Below the pieces are notes generated by a model that saw only the letters and a program-made list of their open reading frames with translations, was not told the origin of the DNA and made no database searches. The position numbers and the translations under genes are program-made. Shown one piece after another: positions 6,027-34,118 of a stretch of 64,000 bases of DNA; the stretch's first letter is position 1, and every line of letters starts with the position of its first letter. This DNA is from an uncultured delta proteobacterium (lineage in GTDB: Bacteria; Desulfobacterota; Binatia; UBA9968), in NCBI GenBank assembly GCA_963745835.1, contig CAVUZH010000003.1, positions 704,001-768,000 on the forward strand, read 5' to 3'.

Positions 6027-7101
6027 TCATAGCTTAATGGGACGAGATGAGTTTAGAGGGTGGCGTAACTCGAACGCAACAAGTCGTTCGTTTTGTAGCA
6101 TGCAGTGATATCCGTATCGGAGGTGCGCGCTGAATTCATGGTAGTAATCGAACCACCAGAACGCCGGCCAGCTAAATATGATAGCGGCGACTCCGGAGCC
6201 GCGTAACCGTTCGAGCTCGTCAATGGCCGTAGCATCATCCGGTGGTGGTCCCGAATATTGACCGTCTCTATCAAGAAACGGAATGGCTCGACGCCCGGCT
6301 GAAATCTCGGTTGTAAACGCGCCTTGATCAACCAGAATGAAAGTGTCCTCGGGCTGGACCAAATCGGCGATCTCCTGTGCTGACAACTGAACCCGGTACT
6401 CCCAATTCCAGCTAACGCTTCCTTTGCGTAAAACCGCCGGGCCATGGCAATCCTGCCTCGGCAGTGTCTCAATTCTGTTGGAGAGGCTACGCCTACCGAG
6501 GAATTCATGTACAGCAATCGCGCAACCATCCCAAGTATAATAGTCGTCTAAAACCACGAAGCCACGGTCCAAAACTTGATCATAAAGATTGTCCAGACAG
6601 CACTTTACGCTCGAATACCAATCGCAGTCGATTCGGAGCAGAGCGATGGCACCGACGCGCTCACGATTGTTCCGTAGGGTCTGGTCAAACCAACCCTTGA
6701 CGAACTCAGTATAAGAGGCAAGTCCGAGGTCCGCCGCAATACCCTGTACCTCCTCGAGTGACGCACGACAGTTATCAAAGTACCAGGGATTGTTTGTGTT
6801 CTTGGCGTACGCCATGGCGGCTGGGCCGTCGATTACATCCGGCGGATGGCAATCCCTCGAACGAGTCAAAGAGCCAGACTTTTCGATCAGTGACCCCGGC
6901 CTGACGCAGGAGTTCAGCCATCAGGAACGCGGCGCCGCCGCGCCAAACCCCGCATTCCACAAAGTCGCCTGGAATGTTGCTCACGAGCAGGTATTTCACC
7001 TGAAGTGCAAGATCTACAAGCGACGCCTCGGCGACCATTGTAAACTGCCGTACCTTGTCCAGAACCGCCGTGAGCTCATGTATGTTTTTTAACGATTCCA
7101 T
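6027..7101 (-). CDS. TylF/MycF-family O-methyltransferase with an extra C-terminal domain; frameshift near 6850
   Basis: GDFVECGVWRGG and WLFDSFEGLP (ORF 6775..7164) continue into VKGWFDQTL, LLRIDCDWYSS and DDY (ORF 6027..6869). Confidence 0.85.
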
Positions 7102-7147
7102 TCTCCATTCGATAAGAAAAATGTCATCCAAATCGGCGGATTTCGAC

Positions 7148-8152
7148 TCACGTCGCCAAGTCAAACACGACCAAACGTTCGTTTTTCAGCACACAATGAT
7201 ACTGGGATTTAAGTTTGCTATGAAACTCCGCGTAATAATCCAGCCACCAAAAAGCATCCCAAGTAAAGACTAGAAACTTCGCACCTGACTCACGCAGCCG
7301 AGTGAGTTCTCGAATCGCCGTGTCGTCGTCTGATGGCACGCCCCAATACTTTCCCTCTCGTTCCAGAAAGGGTATGGCCCAACGTTCATTAACGAGCTGG
7401 CCTCTGATCACGTCATGGTCAACCAGGATGAACCTTTGTCCGTGTGAAATGAGCCTCCCAATTTCATTCACGGTCTTAAAGAGCCGATGTAACTCTAAAT
7501 ATGACCTCGGGTGAACTATCGAGAGCTTACGGATAGCTGTGTTTTCTGCTTCCTTTTTCAGGAGAGGGTGTTTTTCTAAAGACTGGGCTCTCATGAAAAG
7601 TAATATGTTTTGTGCGTACCACCACTCGACGAGCTCGTTTTGCCATACTTTGTCCCGTATGCAATCGATCGCAATATACTCTTTCCGTTTGAAATGGCTT
7701 ACCCAATAGTCTGGCCATTGCTCATTAAAGTGGTCTGTCCCTCCTTGACACGGAATCGCCGCAGAAAACAGAATGACATCTCCCAGGTTGATGAGAGACT
7801 CAACAAATGTCTCCGCGCATTCGAGGGGCAAGTGTTCAGCAACTTCTAACGACACGACCAGATCGAATTGCCTCTCTATTCGAAAAGGTTTCGTGAAGTC
7901 ACATGACAAGAAGCTATCCCCTGGGATTTCTAGAGCATCGCGGTCTACCCAATCACCGTCTACTCCCAAGAAGTCCGCGATCCCAGATTCTCTGAACACA
8001 GACAACCAAGTTCCTGTGCCCGAACCCACATCAACGACACTCCCGGGCCGGATTAGTTCTAAAACCAAAGGAACAATTTCCTTTGCTGATTGTCTCGACC
8101 CGCTTTCGTGTGCCCTATAGAAATCACGGTTATAGGATTGGCTGTTTTGCAT
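7148..8152 (-). CDS. Class I SAM-dependent methyltransferase with the same extra C-terminal domain
   Basis: VVDVGSGTG, SLEVAEHL, FSAAIPCQGGTDHFNEQWPDYW; likely ATG at 8152 (ORF extends to 8206). Confidence 0.85.
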   Translation of the reverse strand: MQNSQSYNRDFYRAHESGSRQSAKEIVPLVLELIRPGSVVDVGSGTGTWLSVFRESGIADFLGVDGDWVDRDALEIPGDSFLSCDFTKPFRIERQFDLVVSLEVAEHLPLECAETFVESLINLGDVILFSAAIPCQGGTDHFNEQWPDYWVSHFKRKEYIAIDCIRDKVWQNELVEWWYAQNILLFMRAQSLEKHPLLKKEAENTAIRKLSIVHPRSYLELHRLFKTVNEIGRLISHGQRFILVDHDVIRGQLVNERWAIPFLEREGKYWGVPSDDDTAIRELTRLRESGAKFLVFTWDAFWWLDYYAEFHSKLKSQYHCVLKNERLVVFDLAT

Positions 8153-8214
8153 GGACTCGGAAACCACGAGATTATCCACGAGAGTTTTAATCCGCAAGCA
8201 TCTCAAGCAAAGTA

Positions 8215-9432
8215 TCAGTTATTGTCATTCATTGCTTTGTCAATAAGCCGGCTAAGGACTTTTGCAGAGTCGAAGTATTCTTCGGCTATGGCCCTTGCCG
8301 CTCGGCAGTGGAACTCATAACGCCTGTTGACCTCCTCAATTCCCGCAAGCGCGTTTTCAGGTGTACTAAAGGGAATAACGCCTGCTCCTGTTTGTAACCA
8401 ATCCGAAAAGCCGGTCTCTTGAACGACTACGGGCCTCCCACTGCTAAGGTAAGCGGCGCTACGTTCGCTGAACCAACCGCTACGAGTGACAACATACCCG
8501 TGTTTAGCAACTCCGAACTCCGCCTTCGACTGCTGAATGTACTGCTGATAACTCCAAGGGTCTCGTGCTGCCTCGAGGGGATTGCTTAGCGTCCAGCCCT
8601 TAGCACGTAGCAAATTGCACGGTGCTGTCGGACTACCGACAGCCAATTCAAGAATAGGTCCGGCTCTCTTGGGCAGGTCACGATAGGGCGCGAAACTGTC
8701 CGACTTCATGCCATAACGTTGTCCATCGTATATCCTCCCAGGAAGGCTGTCCCATTGCATGACCGTTGTGAACTTCCCCTGTGCCGGCCCCGGCTTTACC
8801 GGCCACGTTTCCAAGACGACCGGCTGTCGGGTAGTTTGCCACGGCAGTCGATCGTCCGGAATGCTGCACCGACTGAGGCCGATATTCTCACCAAATGAAA
8901 AAAACGCGGTGTGTTGCATGGCGAGATTTTGTGCCGCAGCATCAGTAAGATGTTTGATCTGAGTGAAGGCTGGATCGGTATCGACAAAAACCCTTGCGGG
9001 AATATTTATAAGCCAGGGGCGTAAGGGATTCACGCCGCTGAGATTTAGCAGGATGTCCGCAGTCGTGAACGTCTCCAGAATGTGATTAGCGTACGGACCA
9101 AGCCAGCGCGAGGTGTGAGCATCATAATATGCCCAGCGGTCTGCTAGGCCAACACGTTCAAAAGTTTGAGTCGCAAATTGCAGCCCATAAGTCGGATCGG
9201 TGTCCATGGTGTGTCTTGTCGGATCGTAGCAAGACCAGGGAGTATCGCCGCTATCTTCGGCGAAGTATACGTCATGCCCACACTGAGCGAGACCCATTAC
9301 ATACTGCAAGTGGTGCCAGACTAAGCCGCCCACTGGCCCACGAACGATGTATCCGAGTACGATGATTCGCAACCGACTGCTTGTATCGCGGTACGGGATC
9401 GATCTAGTGTCAATCTGGTGTGGTCCGCTCAT
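8215..9432 (-). CDS. Uncharacterised GT-B-like (Glyco_trans_1_2/CgeB-like) protein, paralog A3
   Basis: GGLVWHHLQYVMGL..GHDVYFAED, DTDPAFTQ, GWFSERSAAYLSSGRPVVVQETGFS, EEYFD. Confidence 0.75.
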   Translation of the reverse strand: MSGPHQIDTRSIPYRDTSSRLRIIVLGYIVRGPVGGLVWHHLQYVMGLAQCGHDVYFAEDSGDTPWSCYDPTRHTMDTDPTYGLQFATQTFERVGLADRWAYYDAHTSRWLGPYANHILETFTTADILLNLSGVNPLRPWLINIPARVFVDTDPAFTQIKHLTDAAAQNLAMQHTAFFSFGENIGLSRCSIPDDRLPWQTTRQPVVLETWPVKPGPAQGKFTTVMQWDSLPGRIYDGQRYGMKSDSFAPYRDLPKRAGPILELAVGSPTAPCNLLRAKGWTLSNPLEAARDPWSYQQYIQQSKAEFGVAKHGYVVTRSGWFSERSAAYLSSGRPVVVQETGFSDWLQTGAGVIPFSTPENALAGIEEVNRRYEFHCRAARAIAEEYFDSAKVLSRLIDKAMNDNN

Positions 9433-9435
9433 TGG

Positions 9436-10677
9436 CTAATTCAAAGCGTTCTCGATCAAGTGAGTCAGCACCTTGTCAGAGTTGAAATACTGCTCCGCGA
9501 TCATGCGCGCTGCTTTAGCATGCTTATTATAGTTGCTGTCTACCTCTCGGATGCCGGCGATTGCTTCTTCCGGAGTTCTAAAGCTAAGGATCCCTGAGCC
9601 AGTTGGCAGGATTTCTGAAAAACCCGTATCCTGAACAACAACAGGTTTTCCAGCCGCAAGATAACAAGCGGACCTACAGCTAAACCAGCCTGGTTGGCCC
9701 AAAACGTAGCCATTTTTGGCTACGCTCCAATCGGCTTTCGATGCCTGGACGTATTCGCGATAGCTGTCGATATCGCCACACATCGCCATTGCATCGACAA
9801 CACTCCAACCGACTTGCATCAAAAGGTCGAGGACCTTCCACTTAGGATTATCAATTGTAAATGTCTTAATTTTTTGAGAGAAGTCTTGATCATCAGTGTT
9901 CCAGGTGTGTAAAAGTTTCCCGATAGCAACTTCCATCGTGGTGCAACCTACTTTAGTGGGCAGGTCGAGAAATCGCTTGAATTCCGTGTCCTTTTGGCCA
10001 TATTTTTGTCCCTCATAGACCAAGGCCTCGTAACTGGTCCAACTCATAACCGTGGTAAAAACATCACGCTGCGGTGGACACAAATTCCATTCAGATAGAA
10101 CGACGGGCTGCCGTGTAGCGCGCCAGTTATAATCAAGGGCAGGTAAAAAATTCGGCAAACGCTCACCAAATGTAAAGAACACATCATGGGCATTAACACA
10201 GTTACGAAATTTCTCAGGGCCTTGGGCTATCTTGATCTGCGTGAAGACAGGATCGCTATCAATGTATGCGAGAGTGTCAGCTCCGCGGTAAAACTCGGGG
10301 TGTTCCAGAGAGCCAGATACGTTGATCAACAAATCTGCAGATTTTGTGATTTCTGTTCGTTTCGTATCTGAAAGCCCGTACCATTCTCCCTCTCCGATGG
10401 GGAACCGATAGGCCCATTTACCTTCAAACCCAAAACGGGACATCACAGTCGCGAGATGATTTACATTTTTGTGGCAGTCATAAGCCGTCCAGTCGTCGCC
10501 ACATGGACCTCCATCTAGCTTATAGGGCCATTCCCCCGAATCCTCGAAGTAATAGACATCGTGTCCGAGACGCGCGAGACCCAAAGGATATTGCAGGTAG
10601 TCCCACGTCACGCCCCCAAGCAACGGATGTTGAGCGATAAAGCCTGTCACAATTATGCGTAGGGAAGAGGCTGGCAT
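9436..10677 (-). CDS. Uncharacterised GT-B-like protein, paralog A2
   Basis: GGVTWDYLQYPLGL..GHDVYYFED, DSDPVFTQ, GWFSCRSACYLAAGKPVVVQDTGFS. Confidence 0.75.
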   Translation of the reverse strand: MPASSLRIIVTGFIAQHPLLGGVTWDYLQYPLGLARLGHDVYYFEDSGEWPYKLDGGPCGDDWTAYDCHKNVNHLATVMSRFGFEGKWAYRFPIGEGEWYGLSDTKRTEITKSADLLINVSGSLEHPEFYRGADTLAYIDSDPVFTQIKIAQGPEKFRNCVNAHDVFFTFGERLPNFLPALDYNWRATRQPVVLSEWNLCPPQRDVFTTVMSWTSYEALVYEGQKYGQKDTEFKRFLDLPTKVGCTTMEVAIGKLLHTWNTDDQDFSQKIKTFTIDNPKWKVLDLLMQVGWSVVDAMAMCGDIDSYREYVQASKADWSVAKNGYVLGQPGWFSCRSACYLAAGKPVVVQDTGFSEILPTGSGILSFRTPEEAIAGIREVDSNYNKHAKAARMIAEQYFNSDKVLTHLIENALN

Positions 10678-10791
10678 TCAGTTCAGGTCAACACTGGTTT
10701 GATTGAATAGTACTGAAGTCTCCTACTTGACAGCGCACCCACTACAATTCTGATAACACCAATGACTTCTTACGAACCTACGAGTCACAAT

Positions 10792-11932
10792 CTACGACAA
10801 CGCTTGCTCCAAGACAGCCGCGACGACATTACGCGCATCGAAATACTCCTCCGCGAGATCGCGAGCTAGCTTACATTGCTTCTCATAATCGATCACGACT
10901 CTCTCAATGTAGTGTGATGCCTCCTCTACATCGCGGAAGCGAAATAGGCCAGCAGAATTGGGAAGAAAACGGCTTCGTCCTGTATGTTGCACAACGGCTG
11001 GCTTGCCGCTAGCCAAATAGCACAGGGTTCGGTTACTAACCCAGGCATTTTCGAGTCTCAAGCAAGCGGGTTTGGCGCAGCTAAATTCACTGAAAGAGTC
11101 CTGAATGTAACCCTGATAATTCCATGGGGTTGATGCGACCGTATGAGCATCAACAACACGCCAGCCGCGGCGTTGCAGTATAAATCGCTGCTCGTCCTCT
11201 GGCCACAAATCGAGCGCCAGTTCGAGAGGCTGGCCTGTAAGACGTGGCATGTCGAGAAATGGGAGAAATCCAGTCCGTTTTTCGTCCACGTGTGCTTTTG
11301 CTTCCTCGCTTTGTAACCACGCACTCGCATACCAATGCGCCAAAGTAGTAAACGCGCCTTTGCGTGTTGCTTCACAGGATGGCCACCATTCGAGAGCCAC
11401 ACATGGAGGCGTGTAAATCCACTTCAGTCCTACATCCGGAATGCGCGTCCCTGACTGACCAACGGTCTCTCCGGTCGTAAAGTACACATCGTGCGGAGCC
11501 GTGCATACCTGTCCTTTGCTCATCCATAACTGTAATAAACCTGGGTCAATATCTACCAGGGCTGACCTCCGGAAGCGCTTTACAACCTGCAAGGGGGTGT
11601 CGTAGCGAAGTTCTAATAGGAGATCCGCCTCTGAAGCTGCATCGAGGTCAAGACAGCCTATACTGGTTAGATCTATCGGCAGAGCTTCGTCTAGTGCAGG
11701 AATAAAGAGCCACACAATTCACAAGACCATAGCGCTTAAACGACGTTTCAGGGCGGCAACATTGGTGCGTATCGCATCAGCGGAAGTGGGCCGAGTTATC
11801 GCTTCTAACCAGATTACCTGGCAGCCCAGCGCACGAAGCCCAAGGGCCCAATTCAGATACTCCCATAAATGGCCACCACCCTCTAGGATACTCCAGGGTT
11901 TTTGCTGGAGCGATACATACTGTGATGCTCAT
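10792..11932 (-). CDS. Uncharacterised GT-B-like protein, paralog A1; frameshifted near the 5' end
   Basis: ATG at 11932 gives MSITVCIAPAKTLEYP, then GGGHLWEYLNWALGLRALGCQVIWLEA in another frame; ORF 10792..11715 has DIDPG and AWVSNRTLCYLASGKPAVVQHTG. Confidence 0.7.
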
Positions 11933-12032: not shown

Positions 12033-13865
12033 TTAGCTAGGATCCAAATTTCTTCTCACGATAATGAGTAGAGTTTCGCCTCCACAACATCGGATGTGTC
12101 CGCTAGCGCTCTTGCCACATCGGACCGGATAGATGCAACTCGGCCCTTGCTCAATCCCGAGTACCAAGTCGCAGTGTTTCAAGGTCGACAGTCGATGAGC
12201 GATGATGAAGACAGTGCGGCCGACGCTGAGACGCTCCATAACCTCGATAATTTCTCTTTCTGTTTTTATATCGATGGAGCTCGTCGGCTCATCCAAAATG
12301 AGAATGGGAGCATTTTTCAGAAAAGCTCGTGCGAGCGCAATTCGCTGGCGCTGCCCGCCGGACAATTGCATGCCACGCTCACCCACCATCGTGTTATAGC
12401 CATCCGGAAGACGGATTATAAATTCATGCGCATGAGCCGCCTTTGCGGCCTCAACGATTTCATGTTCCGAGGCACCGGGCCGCGCATACGCAATGTTCTC
12501 TCCGATGCTGGTCGAAAAAAGTATAGATTCCTGAAGGACGATTCCGAACTGGTTGCGGAGATCCGCTAGCTTGTAATCCCGAAGATTAATACCGTCGAGG
12601 AGGATTTGGCCGTGAGTCGGGTCGTGAAATCTGGTCATTAGACTGACGAGCGTTGATTTTCCCCCACCTGTCATACCCATAATACCTACTCGAGTCCCAG
12701 GCTTAATTTCGAACGAGATGCCACTCAATACGGGGTTATCCCCGTTGTATGCAAAGCAAACATCCCGGAAGGTTATCTCCCCGCTCGCACGCGATAGAGG
12801 CACCGCATTTTTTCTTTCAATGACATCGGGCTCTTCATCTAAAAGCGCGAAAGCGCGCTCAGTGCTGGCGAGGGAGCGCTGTGCATTTGCCGTCATTTCG
12901 CTCAGTGATGCCAATGGTCCGAATAGCTGTGTCAGGTAAGACATTACGAGTAGTAGATCACCGAGAGTTAAACTTCCTGCTTGAACATGCCGCACGCCCA
13001 GGAATAAGACTCCGGCTGTTCCGGCTGCCGTCGTGATGGCAATCAGAAACTCAAACCCGCCTTCCGACCAAGCAGCCCGAATGCGGGCTAGAAAGCTTTC
13101 GCTGGAATGACGAACAAATCGTTCTTGTTCCCGCTCTTCCTGGCCAAAGGCCTTCACCACGCGCAGCGAGCTTAGTGCTTCCTGCACTACTGAAAAAGCC
13201 GAACTGTCCAACTGCCAAATCTGCCCCCATTGGTTGCGGAGCCGCGGATTAAAGGTTCGCGCGGCTATGTAGAGGATGGGTGAGATGGCCATTGCAACAA
13301 CCGCTAACTGCCAATCGAGAATGACGATGATGTAAATCATTCCGAAGACAGTCAATCCGGTAGCTATCGACGGTATAACTCCATCAATGGCTAGCCACTG
13401 AATCCCAGGAGCGCAATATTGGATGCGGTATGTGGAATCCGCAGTTCCTTTACTATCATGATAGGAAACCGAAAGTCGCTGGACATGTCGAAAGAGTCTG
13501 GTTCGGAACGCCAAAGTTAGCTTTTCGCCTGTATAGGTGGACAACCATGAACTTGCGAGTCGTTGGAGTCCACTAAGAAGGGCAACGGTTACAGTTAGAA
13601 TGATGACGAATATGAGGATGGCGTCGCTTGAATGGGCCAGCGCATCGGGGACCATCCGTTGAAAAAGCGATGGCAGAGGATGGGATCCCATAATGCTGTC
13701 AACTGCTATTTTCAGCGGCAAGGGAGTTAATAGGGCGAGAGGTGTTGATATCAAAGTTATCAACAGAATCCCCGCCAGATGGAAGAAATAGGGCCTGATT
13801 TCAAAGAATAGCCGACGGTAAAGCTTAGAATGATTGTGTTTCTTTTTGTCTGTCATAAATGGCAT
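12033..13865 (-). CDS. ABCB-type exporter (fused permease + ATPase), operon A; C-terminus probably frameshifted
   Basis: Multi-TM N-terminus, Walker A GMTGGGKS, LSGGQRQR, Walker B ILILDE, AHRLST. Confidence 0.9.
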   Translation of the reverse strand: MPFMTDKKKHNHSKLYRRLFFEIRPYFFHLAGILLITLISTPLALLTPLPLKIAVDSIMGSHPLPSLFQRMVPDALAHSSDAILIFVIILTVTVALLSGLQRLASSWLSTYTGEKLTLAFRTRLFRHVQRLSVSYHDSKGTADSTYRIQYCAPGIQWLAIDGVIPSIATGLTVFGMIYIIVILDWQLAVVAMAISPILYIAARTFNPRLRNQWGQIWQLDSSAFSVVQEALSSLRVVKAFGQEEREQERFVRHSSESFLARIRAAWSEGGFEFLIAITTAAGTAGVLFLGVRHVQAGSLTLGDLLLVMSYLTQLFGPLASLSEMTANAQRSLASTERAFALLDEEPDVIERKNAVPLSRASGEITFRDVCFAYNGDNPVLSGISFEIKPGTRVGIMGMTGGGKSTLVSLMTRFHDPTHGQILLDGINLRDYKLADLRNQFGIVLQESILFSTSIGENIAYARPGASEHEIVEAAKAAHAHEFIIRLPDGYNTMVGERGMQLSGGQRQRIALARAFLKNAPILILDEPTSSIDIKTEREIIEVMERLSVGRTVFIIAHRLSTLKHCDLVLGIEQGPSCIYPVRCGKSASGHIRCCGGETLLIIVRRNLDPS

Positions 13866-16603: not shown

Positions 16604-16618
16604 GCAACAACAATGCCA
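16604..16618 (-). promoter_or_regulatory. Sigma-54 (-24/-12) promoter of operon A
   Basis: Minus strand TGGCATT-GTTG-TTGC fits TGGCAC(G)-N4-TTGC spacing; near-identical copy before operon B. Confidence 0.75.
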
Positions 16619-16705: not shown

Positions 16706-16731
16706 CACTTCACTGCAGGGTATATCCTGCA
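16706..16731. promoter_or_regulatory. Putative enhancer-binding-protein site (palindrome), operon A
   Basis: CACTTCAC-TGCAGG-GTATAT-CCTGCA; conserved counterpart at 34094..34118. Confidence 0.6.
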
Positions 16732-25397: not shown

Positions 25398-26218
25398 TCC
25401 TCGTGCTTACGCGGGCGTATCGAATGTTCACCGAAATTCGAACTAGGTGTGCTCCTCGAAGACCGACGTTCGCGGCCTTGTGAAAGATTGGCAAACGAAC
25501 GGAGCGCGATTCCGTTGTCCGTTAGCGCGGCTCGTACCCGGGGGTCACACAAAATCTTGAGCTCCTCCAGACGTTCCTGAGAATACAACGTTTCCACGTC
25601 GCACTCCGCCGCCGGATGGCATGCCAGCTCTGTGTAACCCGCCGGCAGCGTTTCCAAAATACGAATGAGGCCGTCGACGCTGATCACGTCACGCAGGGTC
25701 GTACCGTCGTCTGCTTGCCCATAGAAGCTGCCGCAATAGCTGACTTCCCGAGAGCAATTTCGGAGCGGAACTCCGAGGCGCTCGGCGATTTCCACGACGA
25801 TAATGCGGGCGGGCTCGCGCAGATGAACGTGCTGGTGCGAGTCGAGATGGGTCGGAGCATGTCCCACCAGGCGATCGAACATGCCAAGTTGCCGGGAGAT
25901 TTCGTCTCGCACCGTACTCTCATTCTGCACCGGAACTACGCTGTAGAGGGGCACCCATTCTCCGGCGCGCAAAATCTGTTCGCCGAGATCGATATGCAAC
26001 CCAAGGCTTAGGCGCGGATGTCTGCGCGCATCAGCGGCCGCTTCAGCGGCAGCCGGCCAGCGCACCATCAGGCTCGCGCTGGTGACGATGCCGTCGCGAT
26101 GCGCGGTGATGATGCCGCGGTTGATTCCGCGACTCTGGCCAAAATCATCGGCGTTGACAATTAAGTATTTGGCGCGAGTGGTTGCCTCGGAATGTACGCG
26201 ATTTTCAGATTCTGCCAT
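25394..26218 (-). CDS. ChbG/YdjC/HpnK-family carbohydrate deacetylase
   Basis: LIVNADDFG, TSASLMV, LGLH, THLDSHQHVH, ELACHP. Confidence 0.9.
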   Translation of the reverse strand: MAESENRVHSEATTRAKYLIVNADDFGQSRGINRGIITAHRDGIVTSASLMVRWPAAAEAAADARRHPRLSLGLHIDLGEQILRAGEWVPLYSVVPVQNESTVRDEISRQLGMFDRLVGHAPTHLDSHQHVHLREPARIIVVEIAERLGVPLRNCSREVSYCGSFYGQADDGTTLRDVISVDGLIRILETLPAGYTELACHPAAECDVETLYSQERLEELKILCDPRVRAALTDNGIALRSFANLSQGRERRSSRSTPSSNFGEHSIRPRKHEE

Positions 26219-26232: not shown

Positions 26233-27564
26233 CTACAAGCCTGCTTCGATCATCACCTGCCGGAGGAGCTTTTCAGCATCGAAATACTCCGCGGCAATTT
26301 CTTTGGCAGCCTGGGAATGGCTCGGGTAATCACTGTTGATGGCCTCAATGGCAGGAGGGATATCCTCGAGTTTCTGAAACGCATATAAACCGAGGCCCGT
26401 GGGAATGGACTTGCTGAAAGCCGTCTCCTGAGTGATCACTGGCTTGCCGGCGGCGAGATAGCAGGCGCTCCGCTCGCTGAACCAACCACTACGCAAGCGC
26501 ACGTTCATATCCTTGGCCACCGTGAGCTCGCCTCGCGACCCCCAGATATACGCGCGGTAACTCTCCAGGGTCTCGGAGACCTGATACGCATCTTCGACAC
26601 GCCACCCGTAGCCTTGGAGCATCTGCACGGTAGCGGGATCATCTATGGCCAAGGCCAGGGAAAATTCCTGAGCCGTGCGCCTGGGCAACTCGAGGAGTTT
26701 TAAAAACTCGTGATGCTTGCTCCAAGAGTAACGTTCGCCGTCATATTCCAGGTCTTTGACAGACTGATCCCAATGGCCAATAGTCGTAAAGTAGCGCGCC
26801 GCCGGATTACAGGGCGACTCCCAACAATCGAGGAGGACTGGGGAACGGGTAGGCTTATACTCAAAGGATTGCAGCGGAACACCGCAGTCCGACGCGCCGT
26901 AGTTGGTTCCCCACGTGAACAGCGCCGTGTGGGCTGACACGAGATCGATGTATCTTTGTTCACCGTTGGCGATGCGGAGCTGATGCACTACCGGATCGGT
27001 TTCAAGATAGATCCGGATCGGACATCTCATGTGCTCTTCGCGCAGGATCGTTCCGCCGAAGAGATTGATGATGGCGTCGGCGCGGGCGTATAAATCTTTC
27101 ACCTGAAGCTCTGAGAGACCGTAGCACCGGTTGTCACTATGCGCGGCGACATAGGCCCATTTATTCTCAAAGCCAAAGCGGTTCAGCAGATTGCTGATAT
27201 AGGTCACCGGAAACGTGCAATCATCGGTAGTGGCATTAAAAGGCCATACCGCAGTCGCTTCGACATAGTAGACGTCGTAACCGAGGCGACGAAGTGCGAT
27301 GAGATGCTGCAGGGTATTCCAAGCCACACCGGTTCCGGCCACAGGTAGACAGCCCATAATCCCTAAAACCACAACGACCTTTGGCTTGACGGCATGCACG
27401 CGGTCTCTTTTCCTTTCAACTCTTTCGAAAGATCGATTAATGGGAGGCAACATTGCGGCGCGGTCCACAGCTTCGGGCAGCGCGGTCGCACCTCTCCGAT
27501 GTGAAAGTGGCGGGAGGTCGCTACCCGGTGTGCGCTTTCTCACAGGGCGATCAGCCGCGACCAT
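26233..27564 (-). CDS. Uncharacterised GT-B-like protein, paralog B2
   Basis: GVAWNTLQHLIAL..GYDVYYVE, ETDPV, GWFSERSACYLAAGKPVITQETAFS, EYFD. Confidence 0.75.
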   Translation of the reverse strand: MVAADRPVRKRTPGSDLPPLSHRRGATALPEAVDRAAMLPPINRSFERVERKRDRVHAVKPKVVVVLGIMGCLPVAGTGVAWNTLQHLIALRRLGYDVYYVEATAVWPFNATTDDCTFPVTYISNLLNRFGFENKWAYVAAHSDNRCYGLSELQVKDLYARADAIINLFGGTILREEHMRCPIRIYLETDPVVHQLRIANGEQRYIDLVSAHTALFTWGTNYGASDCGVPLQSFEYKPTRSPVLLDCWESPCNPAARYFTTIGHWDQSVKDLEYDGERYSWSKHHEFLKLLELPRRTAQEFSLALAIDDPATVQMLQGYGWRVEDAYQVSETLESYRAYIWGSRGELTVAKDMNVRLRSGWFSERSACYLAAGKPVITQETAFSKSIPTGLGLYAFQKLEDIPPAIEAINSDYPSHSQAAKEIAAEYFDAEKLLRQVMIEAGL

Positions 27565-28714
27565 TCATCGCCTCCTCCACGAAATCTGTGAGCACCGTCG
27601 TCGCATCGAAATACTCTACAGCGATCTCACGGGCAGCCTTAGCATGCCGCTCATAGTTCGCTTCGATCTCTTTGATCGACGTTACCGCCTCCTCCACAGT
27701 GCTGAAGGCGAGGAGGCCCTCGCCTGTAGGAAGGACCGCGCTGAACCCGGTCTCCTGAACGGCGACGGGGCGCCCCGCCGCTAAGTAGCATGCCGATCGA
27801 CAACTGAACCACCCGGGCCGGCCGACGACATAGCCATTCTTCGCGACGCTCCACTCGGCCTTGGACGATTCGATGTAATTGCGATAACTCTCGAGGTCAG
27901 GACAGACCTCGGCCGGATCGACAACGCGCCATCCCTTGCGAGCTAGCAAGTGACGTGGTGTGCGGCGAGTTTTCCCGGCATTGACAGCGATCTCCAGAGC
28001 GGTTGGGGCGATAAGGCGCGGCAACTCCTGAAAGCGTGCGAACTCGAGATCTTTTTGCCCATAACTTCGATCGCCGTAGACGACCGGCTTGTAACTCGTC
28101 CAGTTCATCACGGTAGTGAAAACCTCGCGAAACGGTCTCTCAGGATGCCACTCTGACAGCACGATAGGCTGCCGCGTCGGACGCCATTGATGACCCGTCT
28201 CAGGCACCTCGGGCGAGAGGCATTCGCCGAAACTGAACTGAACATCATGCACATCGATCCATTTGCGAAAATCGAGCTGGCCGCGCGCCAGCTTTACCTG
28301 TGTAAAGACAGGGTCCGAGTCGATATAAGCCAGGCGGTTTACCTGTCGATACTCCTCAGGTCGCTCTAGAGTTCCCGAAACGTTGATGAGCAGGTCAGCC
28401 GAGCGAATGACCTCTTGTCGTTTCACGTCGGCAAGCCCAAACCACTGTGATTGCCACGGAAAGCGATAGGCCCACTGCTCAGCTAGTCCGTAACGCGACA
28501 TGACGCCAGCAAGATATTGAACATTGAAGTCACAGTCCTTGCCGAGCCCGCCTTCTTGCGGGTTGTAAGGCCATTGCCCGGTATCTTCAAGATAGTATAC
28601 ATCGTGACCTAGCTGCGCGAGGCCAAGAACATATTGAAAGTAATCCCAAGTCACACCACCGAGCGGATATTGAGCGATGAGCCCTGTCACGATGATGCGA
28701 AGCTTCGATGTCAC
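27551..28714 (-). CDS. Uncharacterised GT-B-like protein, paralog B1 (closest to A2)
   Basis: GGVTWDYFQYVLGL..GHDVYYLED, DSDPVFTQ, GWFSCRSACYLAAGRPVAVQETGFS. Confidence 0.75.
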   Translation of the reverse strand: MTSKLRIIVTGLIAQYPLGGVTWDYFQYVLGLAQLGHDVYYLEDTGQWPYNPQEGGLGKDCDFNVQYLAGVMSRYGLAEQWAYRFPWQSQWFGLADVKRQEVIRSADLLINVSGTLERPEEYRQVNRLAYIDSDPVFTQVKLARGQLDFRKWIDVHDVQFSFGECLSPEVPETGHQWRPTRQPIVLSEWHPERPFREVFTTVMNWTSYKPVVYGDRSYGQKDLEFARFQELPRLIAPTALEIAVNAGKTRRTPRHLLARKGWRVVDPAEVCPDLESYRNYIESSKAEWSVAKNGYVVGRPGWFSCRSACYLAAGRPVAVQETGFSAVLPTGEGLLAFSTVEEAVTSIKEIEANYERHAKAAREIAVEYFDATTVLTDFVEEAMNGRG

Positions 28715-28753
28715 GTGTGGTTCTCTCAGCGGCTACACTCGTCCCGTCGTCAC

Positions 28754-29479
28754 TTATCCGTGCTCGCCTAGTCGTGCCGTATAGCGCCGGAGGATCTCTT
28801 CCTTATCGAGCGTCATCCCATTTTGTGGTTTTTTCCGCACCATGATGCGCGTGCTGCTAGGACGCCACGCGCTATGAGGCTGTTCGTCGCGGACAGAATC
28901 AACGATCTCGAACTGCTCCTGCAGCAGAAGAGCTTCAAGGCTGTCGGCCGAGAACACTGTTGGTTCATCCGGAGTGGGTTCACCGCCAAGATCAACACTT
29001 AAGAATAATGCTCCTTCTTTGTTGAGAATCCGCCTCATTTCTTTCAACGCCACTGCGGGATTATGCATGTGGTCGAGAGCGTTCCGACAGATCACCAGGT
29101 CGGCATAATCAGACAGTAACGGAAGCTCCTCAGCGCCTGTCGATAGATAAACAGTCGCGCTACCGGCTTCATCCGGCATTAGCAACCCCAACTGTTGGTA
29201 AACATAAAGAAGCGGGTCTATTGCAATTTTGAGTCGGGAAGGAAATGTAACCAGGTCACCGCTACAGCCGCAGCCGATGCTAACGACTGTTTTCTCTTCC
29301 AGCCAGGTTGGCTCTTGCTTTAAGTACTTAGCGACCTCTTCAAGCAAAAGTCGGGAGTACGCGCGCCGCTCGGCATCATAAGAGCCGCCAAACTCATCAC
29401 GACCGTATCTCTCGTGATAGAGGAACCAACCAACTTCATCGACATACCGTGGATCTGTAAAGTCCGGTATAAATGGCAC
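28754..29479 (-). CDS. Class I SAM-dependent methyltransferase
   Basis: SIGCGCSG, IAIDPL, GAEELP, CRNALDHMHNP; probable GTG start at 29479. Confidence 0.75.
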   Translation of the reverse strand: MPFIPDFTDPRYVDEVGWFLYHERYGRDEFGGSYDAERRAYSRLLLEEVAKYLKQEPTWLEEKTVVSIGCGCSGDLVTFPSRLKIAIDPLLYVYQQLGLLMPDEAGSATVYLSTGAEELPLLSDYADLVICRNALDHMHNPAVALKEMRRILNKEGALFLSVDLGGEPTPDEPTVFSADSLEALLLQEQFEIVDSVRDEQPHSAWRPSSTRIMVRKKPQNGMTLDKEEILRRYTARLGEHG

Positions 29480-29489
29480 GTGTCCTGTC

Positions 29490-31271
29490 CTATTTGACCA
29501 GACGGAATTTCCGCTCATCGTCGCGTAAGCCAAACTGAGTCCTGTACAGAGACGCAAACGGACCACCGCGATGCAGCAGCTCGCTAAACGTGCCCTGCTC
29601 AACAATCTGGCCGGCGCGGACGACGAGAATGAGATCCGCTTGTCGAACCGTGGAGAGCCGGTGAGCGATAATGAAAGTGGTCTTGCCCTCCATCAAATGC
29701 TCCAGCCCATCCATAATCAGAGCCTCGGTTTCCGAATCCACGGAAGAAGTGGGCTCGTCCAGAATCAGTATAGGGGCATCGAGTAAGATGCCGCGCGCGA
29801 TGGTGAGACGTAATTTCTGTCCTTCCGATAAAGTGCATCCTTGTTCGCTGATCATAGTTTCGTACTTGTCCGGGAGCTGCTCAACAAAATCATGAACCTG
29901 AGCCACCTTAGCTGCGCTGATGACGTCTTCCAGAGATGCCTCCGGTCGACCATAAGCGATGTTTTCACGAATGTTGAAAGGAAAGACCAGCGGAGGTTGA
30001 AGAATCATAGCTATATTGCGACGCAGGGATTTCAGTTGAAAATCACGAATGTCGATGCCGTCGATGGTTACCCTACCCGATTGCGGGTCGTAGAACCTCG
30101 GCAGGAGACTCACCAACGTGGACTTCCCCGCGCCGGTCGCGCCGACAATCGCAATCCTTTGACCCGGCGCAACGCGAAAATTGATCTCTTTTAAAATCTG
30201 TCGGGAAGAGTCGTATCCAAACGAAACTTGTTCAAACGAGATCTCGCCTTTCGCCCGCTGTGTTCCAAGAGTCCTATGGCCCTCGGGCATGCTCTGTTCC
30301 GAGTCCAGAATGTCGAACGCTCGCCGCACCCCGACTTTTGCGCTCTGCACCAGCCCATAAGTTTCGAAGATGTTGTTCAGCGGGACATAGAGGGAAGCAA
30401 GATACGAGGTAAATACAACCATATCGCCAACCGAAAGCTGTCCTGATAGAACGTGGCGGGTGCCTACCCATAAAACAGCGGCGGTTCCGGCCGCGATCGT
30501 GACATTTACGACCGCAAGATAAAAATTTTGTAGGTTGTAGAGCCGCAAATCGGCTGCCAGACTCTCGGTGCTTGCTTTGACAAAGCCCCGCTCCTCGTCC
30601 TCTTCTTTGGTAAAAGCCTGGATGACGCGTATTCCTGAGAGCGTCCGCTGCAGGAGTGAATAGACTAAACTCTCCTTTTGCCGAGCCTGTGCAGCTGCAG
30701 AGGACATCTTCCTATTAAGAAGCCCGATGGCAACGAAGAGTGCCGGGCACACAGCCAAAGCCAGTAAAGTGAGAGAGGTATCGAGCGAGAGCATTACCAC
30801 GAACATTCCTGCTAGCAGCACTGAGGCTGAGAGGACTGAGAAAAACCCATTCATGGTAAGCGCCTGAATGCACATAGTGTCGGCGGTAATCCGATACATG
30901 AGATCGCCGACCTGCTGGCGGGTATGAAAGGAGAGCGACAGGCGCTGGATCCGGCTGTAGAGGTCTCGACGAAGATCGTTAACCATTCCCTGGCCAATCC
31001 GGACGGTTGCGCAATCATTCAAGAAGCGCACACCGCCCAGCACGATGTAAACAACGACTAAGCCGGTGCAAGCAGCTATGAGAAGGGTCTCCGAAGGCCA
31101 ATTAAGAGCCAATCCAAATGGCAACGGATTGTCGCTCAGAATATTGTCAATAATGATCTTGAGCGGCCACGGCTTGAGAAGCTCCAGTGCGCTAATAAGG
31201 AAAACCTGACCAAGCGCTAGAACGAAGGCCGGCCAATACGGCTTGAGATAGGAACGAACCGTGCGTTTCAT
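29490..31271 (-). CDS. ABCB-type exporter (fused permease + ATPase), operon B
   Basis: LLKPWPLK N-terminus, Walker A GATGAGKS, LSEGQ signature variant, ILILDE, AHRLST. Confidence 0.9.
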   Translation of the reverse strand: MKRTVRSYLKPYWPAFVLALGQVFLISALELLKPWPLKIIIDNILSDNPLPFGLALNWPSETLLIAACTGLVVVYIVLGGVRFLNDCATVRIGQGMVNDLRRDLYSRIQRLSLSFHTRQQVGDLMYRITADTMCIQALTMNGFFSVLSASVLLAGMFVVMLSLDTSLTLLALAVCPALFVAIGLLNRKMSSAAAQARQKESLVYSLLQRTLSGIRVIQAFTKEEDEERGFVKASTESLAADLRLYNLQNFYLAVVNVTIAAGTAAVLWVGTRHVLSGQLSVGDMVVFTSYLASLYVPLNNIFETYGLVQSAKVGVRRAFDILDSEQSMPEGHRTLGTQRAKGEISFEQVSFGYDSSRQILKEINFRVAPGQRIAIVGATGAGKSTLVSLLPRFYDPQSGRVTIDGIDIRDFQLKSLRRNIAMILQPPLVFPFNIRENIAYGRPEASLEDVISAAKVAQVHDFVEQLPDKYETMISEQGCTLSEGQKLRLTIARGILLDAPILILDEPTSSVDSETEALIMDGLEHLMEGKTTFIIAHRLSTVRQADLILVVRAGQIVEQGTFSELLHRGGPFASLYRTQFGLRDDERKFRLVK

Positions 31272-31295
31272 GGATGTGTCAGAGGGCTGATTTTG

Positions 31296-33905
31296 TCACA
31301 GCACCTCTGCCGATGATTTCGCGACCGGGACAAACTCGAGCTTGTGCGCCAAAGATTCCATGACGTGATAGAGTACGTGGCCGAGGCGGAATTTTTGATA
31401 CAGGATCGCACCCCCGTGAATTAATCCGATACCAAGTGTCGCCAGGGCAATCTGCGGCATCCCGAGGAAAGCGGCGGACGTTGTCAATACCGCATAGAGG
31501 GAAAGGCAGATGAGCGAAACCCTCGACATCCTTAGGGCGCAGCGCACACGTAAAAGCCGCTTTGAGCCGCCATGATTTTCCACCGCTGTCTTCACTTGAG
31601 CTTTTGCCCACGGCCCTTGGCAAATCTCCAGATCCCATTGGCTCCATCCTTGATCCATCGCGATGAGATACTTTCGCGGCAAAAGAAAGTCCATTGCGGC
31701 GCCGAGCAGGCTCTCCTTTTCCTGGCCGGCCTCGTTCCAGTACGAAAGATAAAAGGCGCGCTCGCGCAGCGAGATGCGCGGCGACTGCCGTGGCCCGTTA
31801 CACTCAACCCGTTTGACCTCGCGTAGCCTGCGAATGCGCCAGCGATAGCGCTCGAGGGTTCGAAAGAGTGGCCCAACGTAAATAAGAAATGTTATCAGCA
31901 GAGTCGCCGGCGCGCCCCGGTAAGCCCGGGGGACGCGAGCTCGTAGCGCGCTTGTCAGGCAGCGCGCTACTGTGACGCCGAATGGCGCGAGTGCAAGCCA
32001 GAACCAGCCGCCAAAAATAAACGCGCATGCCACCAGCGCGAGAGAAAGCAAGTTCCACTCGAGAGTCATCGGCAGGCATGCTAAGACGGAGGGCGGCGGC
32101 TGGTAGAGCGTTTGAAAAAGTCCACGACCGAAAACTCCCGAGTAGATCCTCGGCTGGCGGCTCGACAAGAAAGAGGAAAGATCGCCGTAAATCCTGCCGA
32201 ACCAACGCGATTGACCAAGCACATTAAAGCGACTCGGATGTTTAAAGAACAGGAGAGTCTCGGCCTTGCCATAGCCGCGTTGCTGACTTAAGTAATCTCG
32301 CACCGTATTACGGCGAAAATGCCAAACCAGCGCCGCTGGGCTGAAGCCGATCTTGTAGCCTTTGTTCTGAAGTCGCCAGCAAACATCCACATCATCGCCG
32401 GCAGCGCGGAAGATCGGATCAAACCCTGAGATCGCTTCCAAAGCTTCCCGGCGGAATGCCATATTGCATCCCGGTATGTGTTCGGCTACCTCATCATCCA
32501 AAAGCACATGGGCCGGCGCGCCGGGCGATAGGGCGACGCATGAGGCGATCATTGAATCGTCGGGCGGCGACAGATTCGGGCCGCCGACCGCGCCGAATTC
32601 CGACGATTGAAAGCGGGCAACCAGATAGGTCAGCCAGTCTTCATCGGCCATACAATCAGCATCGGTGAAGGCAATGATATCACCTGTGGAAGCGCGGATA
32701 CCGACGTTGCGCGCCTCACTCAGTCCTCTATTTTCCTGATTGATCAGATGAATGTAGTCGTAGCTCTCGGCGATTTTCTGGGTTCGATCCGTGGAGCCAT
32801 CGTTCACCACAATAACTTCATAATTTCGGTAATTGAGTTTTTCTAACGAAGCGAGGCAGGCATCTATTGTGCGTTCCCCGTTGTACACGCATACAACTAC
32901 AGAAACCTTGGGATAGCGGTTGAGATCCGCCGGAAGCGTATTAGCGTAGTACTTTTTTGCTTCCCAGTAAGCCGGTTTTGGTTGGCGGTTACGATCAACC
33001 AAACCGAAAGCCCAATCGTCAACCTGAAATCCCTCAGCGCCGGAATAGGCATGCCAGTCATCAGTCCATGAGAAGATCACGGTGCCCGCGACGCCGGTCT
33101 CGAAGCTTACGCGCAATTGCCAGGACATCGCTTGGGCCTGAAAGTCGAGCCCTTGGCTGACCGAGTCCATGCCAATCTCAGTCAGCACGAGCGGCCGATC
33201 ACCGGCTAAATTGTGGAGATGAAAAAGGTAACGACGGAAGTCTTGCTCGCGATGAAGGTAGACATTGAACGCCAAGAAGTCGGTAAAATCTATCTCCAGG
33301 TATTCAGTAGAAGGAAAATTCGCGTAACTAACGAATCGCTCCGGATCGCTTGCTTTCGCCGCTTTGAATAAGCTCCCGAGAAACGATCGGACTCGCCGTG
33401 CGCCGTGCCATCGCACAATGTCGGGGGGAATCTCATTTCCAATTAGATAGGCGAAGGTCGCAGGATGTCGCTTGCAAGCCTCAACACTGCCGACAATAGT
33501 TTTACGAACTTCAGACTGCGTGCGAGGTGAGTCAAGAAAAGATATATGCTGAGCCCATGGAATGCCGACGATCACTCTCAGGCCGCAGGCTGCCGCCATA
33601 TCGAGGAGCCAATCGGGCGGCGGCGTAAAGGTGCGGAAACAGTTGACTCCGAGTTTCCTCATCAATGTAAAATCCATCTCGACACGTGCTGCTTCTGGAA
33701 AAGGAACCCCTTGAAGTGAAGGAGCAAAAGGGCCGTAGGTAACTCCTTTCAAGAAAAACTTCTCATGATTGTTGAAGAAAAAACGTCCCTGCGCTGTGAT
33801 TTTTTCCGACGTGCTTAGCGGGGTAGAATCAAGCCGGCTCGATAGTGGTAGAGGTTCCAAGGTTTCAGGATAAGGTTTGAAAAGTTGCGGCAGCGGCATA
33901 TTCAC
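31296..33905 (-). CDS. Clan GH-A TIM-barrel :: GT2 glycosyltransferase :: membrane domain fusion, operon B (intact)
   Basis: GVTYGPF, LIGNEI, VLTEIG, FSWTDDW; GT2 motifs VVNDGSTD, FTDAD, PGCNMAFR, GDDVD, QQRGYG; C-terminal TMs; AGGAG RBS 8 nt before GTG 33905. Confidence 0.9.
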   Translation of the reverse strand: MNMPLPQLFKPYPETLEPLPLSSRLDSTPLSTSEKITAQGRFFFNNHEKFFLKGVTYGPFAPSLQGVPFPEAARVEMDFTLMRKLGVNCFRTFTPPPDWLLDMAAACGLRVIVGIPWAQHISFLDSPRTQSEVRKTIVGSVEACKRHPATFAYLIGNEIPPDIVRWHGARRVRSFLGSLFKAAKASDPERFVSYANFPSTEYLEIDFTDFLAFNVYLHREQDFRRYLFHLHNLAGDRPLVLTEIGMDSVSQGLDFQAQAMSWQLRVSFETGVAGTVIFSWTDDWHAYSGAEGFQVDDWAFGLVDRNRQPKPAYWEAKKYYANTLPADLNRYPKVSVVVCVYNGERTIDACLASLEKLNYRNYEVIVVNDGSTDRTQKIAESYDYIHLINQENRGLSEARNVGIRASTGDIIAFTDADCMADEDWLTYLVARFQSSEFGAVGGPNLSPPDDSMIASCVALSPGAPAHVLLDDEVAEHIPGCNMAFRREALEAISGFDPIFRAAGDDVDVCWRLQNKGYKIGFSPAALVWHFRRNTVRDYLSQQRGYGKAETLLFFKHPSRFNVLGQSRWFGRIYGDLSSFLSSRQPRIYSGVFGRGLFQTLYQPPPSVLACLPMTLEWNLLSLALVACAFIFGGWFWLALAPFGVTVARCLTSALRARVPRAYRGAPATLLITFLIYVGPLFRTLERYRWRIRRLREVKRVECNGPRQSPRISLRERAFYLSYWNEAGQEKESLLGAAMDFLLPRKYLIAMDQGWSQWDLEICQGPWAKAQVKTAVENHGGSKRLLRVRCALRMSRVSLICLSLYAVLTTSAAFLGMPQIALATLGIGLIHGGAILYQKFRLGHVLYHVMESLAHKLEFVPVAKSSAEVL

Positions 33906-33991
33906 TGGTGCTTCTCCTATTGAAAAATAAAACCGCGTCAGAGAGACAGAATGGTGCGAAAACGCTATCCGGGTAGCAATGGTGGCGCAAC

Positions 33992-34006
33992 GCAACAATA
34001 ATGCCA
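33992..34006 (-). promoter_or_regulatory. Sigma-54 (-24/-12) promoter of operon B
   Basis: Minus strand TGGCATT-ATTG-TTGC. Confidence 0.75.
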
Positions 34007-34093
34007 GTAAAGTTCTGAAAACGATTTACTTTTATAAATAATGGTTTAACGGTGTCTAAATTACCTTGGAGCGCTCATTTGTCTCAAAGGCAG

Positions 34094-34118
34094 CACTTCA
34101 GTGCAGGTTTATCCTGCA
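34094..34118. promoter_or_regulatory. Putative enhancer-binding-protein site (palindrome), operon B
   Basis: CACTTCAG-TGCAGG-TTTAT-CCTGCA (TGCA-N9-TGCA), same distance from the -24 box as in operon A. Confidence 0.6.

Follow-up and report, generated by a model that had tools for sequence, protein, structure and literature searches.

A fused glycoside hydrolase–GT2 synthase, an ABCB exporter and a GT-B protein family form a seemingly undescribed pathway to exported glycans in bacteria

All domains of the cyclic glucan synthase Cgs, a protein of ∼300 kDa with a GH189 cyclisation domain, are generally placed in the cytoplasm. In the account given in part of PMC11842490, the membrane synthase contains glycosyltransferase (GT) and glycoside hydrolase (GH)/transglycosylase domains, and the product is exported by an ATP-binding cassette (ABC) transporter, Cgt/ChvA. 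The NdvB/Orphan GH17-GT2 synthases of cyclic β-1,3-glucan carry a clan GH-A barrel at the N-terminus, joined to GT2 and membrane helices; a section of PMC10237404 assigns GH17 a periplasmic position behind a signal peptide, with membrane helices between GH17 and GT2, and also describes P. syringae forms without the signal. Here we analyse a window of 64,000 nucleotides (C3:704001-768000) from the assembly of an uncultured bacterium (7.28 Mb, 97% complete, 9% contaminated), whose nearest kin among named records is Candidatus Binatia. The window carries, in two minus-strand operons A and B, a module that combines a fusion of a clan GH-A barrel, a GT2 domain and a membrane part (the synthase) with an ABCB-type exporter and GT-B proteins marked by a GWFSxRSAC motif (the G family). 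The system is not Cgs, NdvB, OpgGH, MftF or ApsS; it is a widespread, uncharacterised pathway of known general logic, built from new families, and seems to be an as yet undescribed way of making and exporting glycans in bacteria.

The conserved core of the system is the synthase, the ABCB exporter and G. Among loci selected by G (the best 80 of 102, many of them short), ABC genes were found in 45, GT2 in 41 and GH in 38. The presence of methyltransferases, ChbG, GT-C and the GH50-like protein differs between lineages: the same loci contained ChbG and MT11-like genes in 8 each, MT12-like in 6, NodS-like and GH50-like in 4 each, GT-C and OpgC in 2 each, and OpgG in 1. Methylation and deacetylation, which the original prediction had counted as traits of the product, therefore belong to lineage-specific genes rather than to the core. 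Selection by the synthase (best 80 of 576 metagenome loci) left 26 loci with 6 kb of downstream sequence, which held ABC in 19 cases, G in 14 and the GH50-like gene in 5. Genomes whose G locus mostly had no adjoining synthase encoded one elsewhere in 35 of 37 cases. The synthase was present in 10 of 201 sampled genomes of the host phylum and G in 8; the corresponding numbers for 151 Verrucomicrobiota genomes were 10 (one a GT2-only match) and 8. Taken together, 16 of these 352 genomes had both, none had G alone, 4 had the synthase alone and 332 had neither; kin in these samples are not independent, as five of the first ten synthase genomes come from one family. The original prediction had proposed a distinct pathway of glycan synthesis and export, checkable by co-occurrence of its core genes across genomes, and this proposal holds, with a synthase in all 16 G-bearing genomes and a core that recurs across phyla. 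No paper on this architecture was found in the open-access literature by exact-phrase matching, which did not cover supplements, so a mention elsewhere is possible.

Records of the system span Binatia, Pseudomonadota, Nitrospirota, Planctomycetota, Verrucomicrobiota, Chloroflexota, Cyanobacteriota, Bacteroidota, Acidobacteriota and others, and the genes are carried by Tateyamaria pelophila DSM 17270 and Moorena producens 3L. Both families are large and bear generic names only; their members come from bacteria of soil, sediment and the sea in many phyla. At 90% identity the synthase family comprises at least 7,965 clusters (8,000 candidates scored), and at 50% identity 1,468 clusters of the G family score E below 1e-30. 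The GT2-membrane part of the synthase matched only unnamed clusters of the Atlas. A plasmid search returned a single GT2-only match and no full synthase. Stand-alone synthases are neighboured mostly by housekeeping genes.

Within the window, gene order and content agree with the original prediction, which placed the module at 6027-16731 (A) and 21894-34118 (B) with the fusion first and the ABCB gene second. Operon B continues with MT11, two G genes, YdjC/ChbG, MT12, a NodS-like methyltransferase, the GH50-like secreted protein foreseen as a GH lipoprotein, and an intact GT-C gene; operon A continues with three G genes, MT23 and a TylF-like methyltransferase, followed by GT-C fragments and, as anticipated, a ChbG relic. 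The genes, with their S-adenosylmethionine (SAM)-dependent methyltransferases and, for one protein, the predicted local distance difference test (pLDDT) score of its model, are:

31296..33905, minus strand: synthase B, 869 residues (PF02836 and PF00535)
29490..31271, minus strand: ABCB-type half transporter B (PF00664 and PF00005)
28754..29605, minus strand: SAM methyltransferase, MT11-like, accessory (Pfam match; 8/80 G-selected loci)
27551..28714, minus strand: G family GT-B protein B1, core (model pLDDT 96; BshA match)
26233..27564, minus strand: G family GT-B protein B2 (38% to B1; true start probably ∼60 codons further in)
25394..26218, minus strand: YdjC/ChbG-like deacetylase, accessory (PF04794, E 2e-48; under the ChbG and HpnK cut-offs)
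24534..25397, minus strand: SAM methyltransferase, MT12-like, accessory (Pfam match)
23861..24514, minus strand: NodS-like SAM methyltransferase, accessory (PF05401, E 4e-16; NF041650, 65 bits against a cut-off of 300; start set from a homologue)
21894..23894, minus strand: GH50-like secreted glycoside hydrolase, accessory but recurrent (GH50 agarase structures, E 5e-22; lipobox-like N-terminus)
20127..21560, minus strand: GT-C protein (PMT_2/ArnT-like) after operon B, intact (Pfam match; 2/80 G-selected loci)
13825..16468, minus strand: synthase A (frameshift near 14580; halves 73% and 53% identical to the intact L020 protein)
12033..13865, minus strand: ABCB-type half transporter A (frameshift near 12140)
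10792..11931, minus strand: G family protein A1 (several frameshifts near its start)
9436..10677, minus strand: G family protein A2 (56% to B1)
8215..9432, minus strand: G family protein A3 (42% to B1)
7148..8206, minus strand: SAM methyltransferase MT23 with a 110-residue C-terminal domain (Pfam and profile)
6027..7164, minus strand: TylF-like O-methyltransferase with the 110-residue domain (PF05711, E 6e-19; frameshift near 6850)
3256..5750, minus strand: GT-C fragments after operon A (weak PMT_2 match, E 8e-4, on 3256-3768 only; remainder judged from translations)
2267..2374, minus strand: ChbG relic (36 codons, 53% over 36 residues, in-frame stop)

Synthase B, which starts at 33905 and is present as an 869-residue sequence in the protein collection, contains a clan GH-A barrel (residues ∼30–325), a GT2 domain (330–600) and, last, the membrane part. 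Its model (pLDDT 81) shows about four membrane helices, arranged as two helical hairpins around a small α/β domain. The barrel has the features of clan GH-A retaining glycosidases: a (β/α)8 fold with Z-scores of 30–32 to its best matches, and acid/base and nucleophile glutamates. E158 and E243 are invariant in 31/31 homologues, and E243 aligns with E224 of LaGH157, the nucleophile mutated there as E224A. The signature of GH2 β-glucuronidases was looked for and not found: NxK, the carboxylate-binding motif of these enzymes, is replaced, and DWAFGL of the synthase aligns with GNKKGI of 6ed2. LaGH157 is the best sequence match of the GH domain (E 8e-9 for the single sequence and 2e-18 for the profile; ∼20% identity), and GH157 is an endo-β-1,3-glucanase according to a portion of PMC10229575. 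A subclade of synthases (L012:2111-4714, L014:14244-16868 and L056:3645-6251) has K-E instead of N-E at the acid/base glutamate, hinting at a different GH specificity. At L168 (G272:C21), a second copy of the synthase has neither ABC nor G nearby, and its GH domain has diverged strongly (25% identity).

The GT2 domain carries the aspartates of its fold, namely D369 (D motif), D415-x-D417 (DxD) and D504-D505 (catalytic D), invariant in 31/31 homologues. It shares these with BcsA-type processive enzymes but has QQxGY where the latter have QxxRW, and about four helices in place of a multi-helix channel. With so few helices, the synthase is unlikely, judging from the model, to be its own export channel. 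Hydropathy profiles revealed nothing hydrophobic ahead of the GT2 core in any of the 31 homologues, and both catalytic domains are for this reason predicted to lie on the cytoplasmic side of the membrane.

By analogy, the system would work most like Cgs with Cgt and resembles NdvB/Orphan in domain order, while the features that define each of the two appear to be missing. Compared with Cgs, the synthase has 869 residues and a clan GH-A barrel in place of the GH189 domain, an obligatory GT-B partner is present, and the ABC protein scores 322 bits against a ChvA cut-off of 585. Compared with NdvB, the GH domain abuts GT2 without a helix between, and ABC and G are present. No GH17 Pfam match to the synthase was obtained at E 0.01; its matches were PF02836 and PF03198, and its best structures GH157 and GH2. 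The likeness to NdvB drawn in the original prediction is hence hard to maintain, since the NdvB GH17 domain is periplasmic with helices before GT2 (in the relevant part of PMC10237404). The observation that the window lacks Cgs extends to the whole host genome (0 matches to PF10091 in the 97% complete assembly), whereas OpgH, likewise lacking from the window, exists on contig C14. OpgC- and OpgD-like genes adjoin the operons, but the host has its own OpgH and these genes show no linkage to the core in other lineages. The nearest curated GT2 model is that of MftF (TIGR03965), which makes oligo-glycosides that are methylated; the two synthases score 174 and 165 bits, below its cut-off of 280, the mycofactocin pathway is without GH, ABC or G, and the host genome has no MftF over the cut-off. 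Sinorhizobium uxs1-uxe-apsS shares with related operons a UDP-xylose synthase (Uxs) gene and a 4-epimerase gene directly before a GT2 synthase (parts of PMC12560781 and PMC13438883), and uxe is the best epimerase match on pSymB; synthase B has no blastp match to any open reading frame (ORF) of that locus at E 1e-5, and no G or ABCB match was found there.

The ABC protein of operon B combines PF00664 and PF00005 and scores under the cut-offs of the MsbA, ChvA, HepA and PglK models; with the ChvA/glucan-ABC models, the two ABC proteins of the window score 322 and 296 against 585 (TIGR01192) and 403 and 347 against 733 (PRK13657). Tandem ABC half-transporter genes occur in ten loci (L025, L028, L041, L045, L050, L134, L163, L165, L172 and L173), which suggests a heterodimeric exporter in some lineages.

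The model of G protein B1 adopts a GT-B fold, as the original prediction had supposed, and is nearest to GT4 enzymes. The best match is BshA (Z 25.3, root-mean-square deviation 3.6 over 328 aligned residues), and BshA, PimA and PglA all match with Z 22–25 at 10–15% identity. In an alignment of 94 members, every sequence has G20, E43, P135, K221 and T322, and nearly all have K292 and R306. The EX7E motif of GT4 enzymes was not found in G, and G301...C309 (GWFSxRSAC) takes its place at the equivalent positions. Streptococcal Gtf3, which also has a GT-B fold without EX7E, is the best match by profile, although weakly so (E 0.02–0.04, over the C-terminal motif). At the level of Pfam, 55 of the 94 members gave sub-threshold matches to PF13524 at E 0.1 and 4 touched PF13692 at E 0.01 or worse; a match to the GT4 families PF00534/PF13692 was not obtained. 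Among 42 long members scanned, G was fused to GT2 (22), ABC (6), GT4 (6), methyltransferase (5), APH kinase (5) or sulfotransferase (4) domains.

The genes surrounding the core are diverse. Related operons contain sulfotransferases, a pyruvyltransferase-like family, APH kinases, GNAT and hexapeptide acetyltransferases, CE4 and PIG-L deacetylases, GT4, GT8-GT2 and CBM9-DUF5916 proteins (the last in 5 loci), and three unrelated deacetylase families (YdjC, CE4 and PIG-L) occupy one slot. Both methyltransferases of operon A end in an unnamed domain of 110 residues that, in the host genome, is found only there. It has no Pfam match and hits only unnamed Atlas clusters; a profile detected 51 occurrences, spread over the window, 8 related loci and 25 of 150 G-containing proteins, and the carriers are G, GT2, GT8-GT2, sulfotransferases, methyltransferases and one GT-C protein (L008). 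The domain is probably a glycan-binding or docking module. The GT-C gene after operon B is a probable member of the system. Both glutamates and a secretion signal are present in the GH50-like protein, which is 42% identical to its L100 homologue and recurs in five distant loci. GH50 comprises agarases, a β-galactosidase and β-1,3-glucanases (part of PMC11079163); given these mixed activities, as far as that part goes, the protein points to an exported β-linked substrate but not to which one. Several further genes were noted. A 28-codon relic of a second GT-C gene lies at 21655-21738 (minus strand) and is intact in L008 (16979-18595), there with the 110-residue domain. A split SGNH hydrolase with a CBM20-like domain follows operon A (410-2075, minus strand); similar SGNH genes occur in G loci L014 and L016, and it may be a further accessory. 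Two more unnamed families without a Pfam match (L011:13654-15432 and L045:6529-8037) recur in 7 and 6 loci, and in L174:4900-10900 (G004) the synthase is separated from the ABC gene by genes for an acyl carrier protein and a ketosynthase.

The reading that we prefer, tentatively and at a little short of even confidence, is that a short, branched, length-controlled β-oligosaccharide, whose chemistry we infer, is made in the cytoplasm, is soluble and is exported by the ABC transporter. The inverting GT2 domain, by its fold and motifs, would build a β-linked chain at the cytoplasmic face of the membrane. On the same side the fused retaining GH-A domain, with its two glutamates, would cut or rejoin the chain, thereby setting its length, freeing it from a primer or closing a ring. 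Fold and co-occurrence suggest that G is a retaining GT4-like, obligatory partner that primes the chain or adds α-linked branches, one sugar per paralogue. UDP-xylose, and in some lineages its 4-epimer UDP-L-arabinose or UDP-galactose, may feed the GT2 or the G step, as gene linkage indicates. Lineage-specific methyl-, sulfo-, acetyl-, pyruvyl- and phosphotransferases and deacetylases, seen as genes and many with the 110-residue targeting domain, would decorate the product. Because the synthase has too few membrane helices to form its own channel, export would fall to the ABCB protein, after which the secreted GH50-like enzyme may trim or recycle the product. A backbone of β-1,3-linked glucose or xylose appears most likely because of the nearest relatives of the GH domain.

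The clue to a pentose comes from nucleotide-sugar genes that recur at the operon head in unrelated lineages, namely Uxs (UDP-glucuronate decarboxylase) and a GalE-like epimerase. In 17 of 24 loci that have a synthase with Uxs or epimerase, the epimerase ends 128–245 bp before the GH match on the same strand, and the row Uxs-epimerase-synthase is present in 5 loci, from Gammaproteobacteria and one family of the host phylum. The cluster Uxs matches human UXS1 at 421 bits (next family, 140 bits) and is 57–66% identical to S. meliloti Uxs1 (5 tested); G003 and G233 carry a second Uxs elsewhere. The linkage appears in both deep clades of the synthase, whose tree requires 8 changes for it. Although they come from different phyla, the 21 cluster epimerases group together and separately from housekeeping copies (moderate support, 59/95). 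Their best S. meliloti pSymB match is 471461-472411, which lies within uxe (the locus as given in part of PMC13438883), the second gene of an arabinose-polysaccharide operon (in the portion of PMC12560781 on that operon). These associations make it fairly likely that the system uses UDP-xylose or a derived pentose, in the GT2 or the G step, and xylose or arabinose is probably part of the product. The glucan of the original prediction is accordingly unproven, the recurring nucleotide-sugar genes being those for UDP-xylose synthase and epimerase. Several counts weigh against a pentose. Uxs or the epimerase occurs in only 16 of 62 loci with 3 kb upstream, and any close epimerase in 26 of 40 synthase genomes. 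On the specificity of the epimerase the signs are mixed: 16 of the 17 linked epimerases score higher to Uxe than to GalE/ExoB, by small margins, and the tree places S. meliloti Uxe beside its exo-region GalE. In the host, Ugd and Uxs are ∼300 kb from the operons, and no GalE/Uxe over the cut-off was found in its genome. Uxs is present in 76 of 82 synthase genomes against baselines of 138/201 (69%) and 73/81 (90%); at such baselines, genome-level co-occurrence says little and was set aside as evidence.

A fuller version combines these elements: the GH-A transglycosylase-GT2 synthase would make a cyclic or defined-length β-glycan of xylose/arabinose or a xylose-branched glucan (xyloglucan- or arabinoxylan-like), with branches added by G, tailoring enzymes recruited by the 110-residue domain, methylated, sulfated and aminated variants according to lineage, and export by ABC, as a new class of oligosaccharide pathway across many phyla. 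As a whole it is speculative and rather doubtful. Should the reading hold, the synthase would represent a new architecture, a GT family and a GH family or subfamily would probably be new as well, and a new targeting domain and an exported glycan of abundant uncultured soil bacteria would be added.

The soluble oligosaccharide also has evidence against it. The core is not always contiguous, as 7 of the 26 synthase loci have no ABC nearby and 12 no G, and each phylum sample includes 2 synthase genomes without G. The GH fold scores are nearly equal for GH157 (Z 32.2, 30.5 and 29.9) and GH2 glucuronidases (up to 31.0), which makes the glycosidic linkage only a guess. The system is present in Chloroflexota and in one Acidimicrobiia bin. 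These groups are generally regarded as monoderm, which makes a strictly periplasmic role doubtful. Finally, QQxGY in place of QxxRW and a GT2 domain nearest to MftF would fit a glycoconjugate equally well.

The main rival draws on the same evidence: an MftF/HpnI-like GT2 and G would assemble an oligosaccharide on a membrane lipid that the membrane module retains, the GH domain would edit or transfer blocks, the ABC protein would flip the product like MsbA/PglK, and GT-C would add sugars outside. Such a lipid-linked glycan or glycolipid is possible but on the unlikely side. Besides the MftF match, the non-canonical QQxGY and the Chloroflexota records, it is favoured by the ABC proteins, which score highest with MsbA-like models and fall below the ChvA cut-off, by the best fold match of G (BshA), by the three deacetylase families sharing one slot, by the GT-C genes after both operons, and by the acyl carrier protein and ketosynthase of L174. 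The 110-residue domain on the L008 GT-C further ties an extracytoplasmic transferase to the system. The combination of G, deacetylase, flippase and GT-C in operons of B type would echo the logic of PIG-A/PIG-L/GT-C. These accessory genes are sparse, with deacetylases in only 10 of 58 loci, GT-C of the window's type in 2 of the 80 G-selected loci and the acyl carrier protein–ketosynthase pair seen once, and an oligomer accounts for an invariant endo-type GH more readily than a short head group would.

ABC-dependent export of a long surface polysaccharide (capsule, S-layer glycan or O-chain-like) is improbable. Methyltransferases and APH kinases would cap the chain, as WbdD does, and the GH domain would serve quality control; the pyruvyl-, sulfo- and acetyltransferases, APH kinases, GT8/GT2 multidomain proteins and the five loci with CBM9-DUF5916 genes are in keeping with this. 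Against it, the exporter is an ABCB half transporter rather than Wzm/Wzt or KpsMT, and no Wza/OPX or co-polymerase family was detected among the families in at least 3 loci or the unassigned ORFs scanned. A secreted glycoside or signal made by Nod-factor-like logic (GT2 oligomer, de-N-acetylation, NodS-like N-methylation, sulfation, acetylation and ABC export) is suggested by the ChbG-like and NodS-like genes of operon B and the sulfotransferases and hexapeptide acetyltransferases of relatives, but is very improbable, as NodC and NodS score 50 and 65 bits against cut-offs of 550 and 300, no NodA-like family recurs, the ChbG and NodS pair is confined to close relatives, and NodS-like genes occur in 4 of the 80 G-selected loci.

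The two operons of the window differ in state. Operon B is intact, and operon A has frameshifts in the synthase, ABC, first G and TylF-like genes, a point absent from the original prediction. The synthases are 47% identical, the ABC proteins 39% and the five G proteins 30–56% among themselves; genome-wide these are the only five G copies and the only two full fusions. At the break in synthase A at 14580, a contig of run X1 has one base fewer; it differs from operon A at 24 further positions in 1,731 bases, many close to the break. Four genomes of the host family encode intact A-type synthases, and other genes of the assembly are split as well (47007-49320 and Ugd). Together these points indicate that at least the frameshift near 14580 is probably an assembly error. 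The A and B synthases fall into two deep clades (FastTree, 61 rows) and the G+C content of operon A is 0.513 against 0.554 for B, so that separate acquisition is as likely as the duplication implied by the earlier term paralogous. G300, from another genus of the host family, carries A-type and B-type operons in tandem. Contigs from RNA runs of related strains span most of operon B, among them one of 3,832 nucleotides over 30180-34010 with ∼5% difference; they were not counted as transcription.

Both operons are preceded by shared control elements:

34102..34118, minus strand: palindromic element of operon B, candidate enhancer-binding-protein site (shared motif)
16714..16731, minus strand: palindromic element of operon A, candidate enhancer-binding-protein site (shared motif)
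33992..34006, minus strand: sigma-54 -24/-12-like site of operon B (TGGCA-N6-TTGC)
16604..16618, minus strand: sigma-54 -24/-12-like site of operon A (TGGCA-N6-TTGC)

The palindrome, TGCAGG-N5/6-CCTGCA-n-TGAAGTG, has just two copies in the genome, one ahead of each operon and 112–113 bp before the TGGCA-N6-TTGC site; its positions coincide with the operon ends first given, 16731 and 34118. Taken by itself, the window shows the sigma-54 pattern only weakly (10 matches against 5 expected; 3 of 100 shuffles reached 10). Across 116 upstream regions, which include the window's two and count one gene twice, a sigma-54-like site precedes the fusion in 22, against 0 of 116 on the opposite strand, and the palindrome-like motif appears in 6. 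The sigma-54 operons of the original prediction thereby gain a shown motif, which would place the Binatia operons under sigma-54/enhancer control; they probably serve a stress or envelope response.

Further genes neighbour the operons without belonging to the core:

17621..19923, minus strand: OpgC and SGNH pair (probably ordinary OPG pathway)
38592..40295, minus strand: OpgG/D-family protein with a twin-arginine motif (PF04349; probably ordinary OPG pathway; second copy beside OpgH on C14)

OPG here denotes osmoregulated periplasmic glucan. OpgC, SGNH and OpgD had been taken as possible members of the system and are rejected as such: OpgC is near G in only 2 of the 80 G-selected loci and OpgG/D in 1, all from close Binatia relatives. 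Contig C14 holds OpgG adjoining an OpgH over its cut-off, the OpgH model matching only C14:299776-301548. With this operon of their own, the OpgC and OpgD-like genes need no new synthase and probably serve the ordinary OpgGH pathway. Inside the N-terminus of the long OpgC ORF, a Phd/YefM antitoxin-like stretch (19750-19923, minus strand) is probably a separate small gene or relic. Just past the window (G000:C3, ∼776-1037 kb), GT2 and nucleotide-sugar epimerase genes abound over a large region that includes Ugd and Uxs at 1034-1036 kb. The stretch 43433-49320 contains genes for ring-hydroxylating dioxygenase subunits and one of the xanthine-dehydrogenase family that is split, probably by another frameshift error. 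Genes for glycine/betaine reductase component B are found at 55875-58700 (plus strand); the GrdB frame (VILTST*GTSTRSG) has an in-frame TGA at 58389-58391 followed by ∼80 codons, as expected for selenocysteine.

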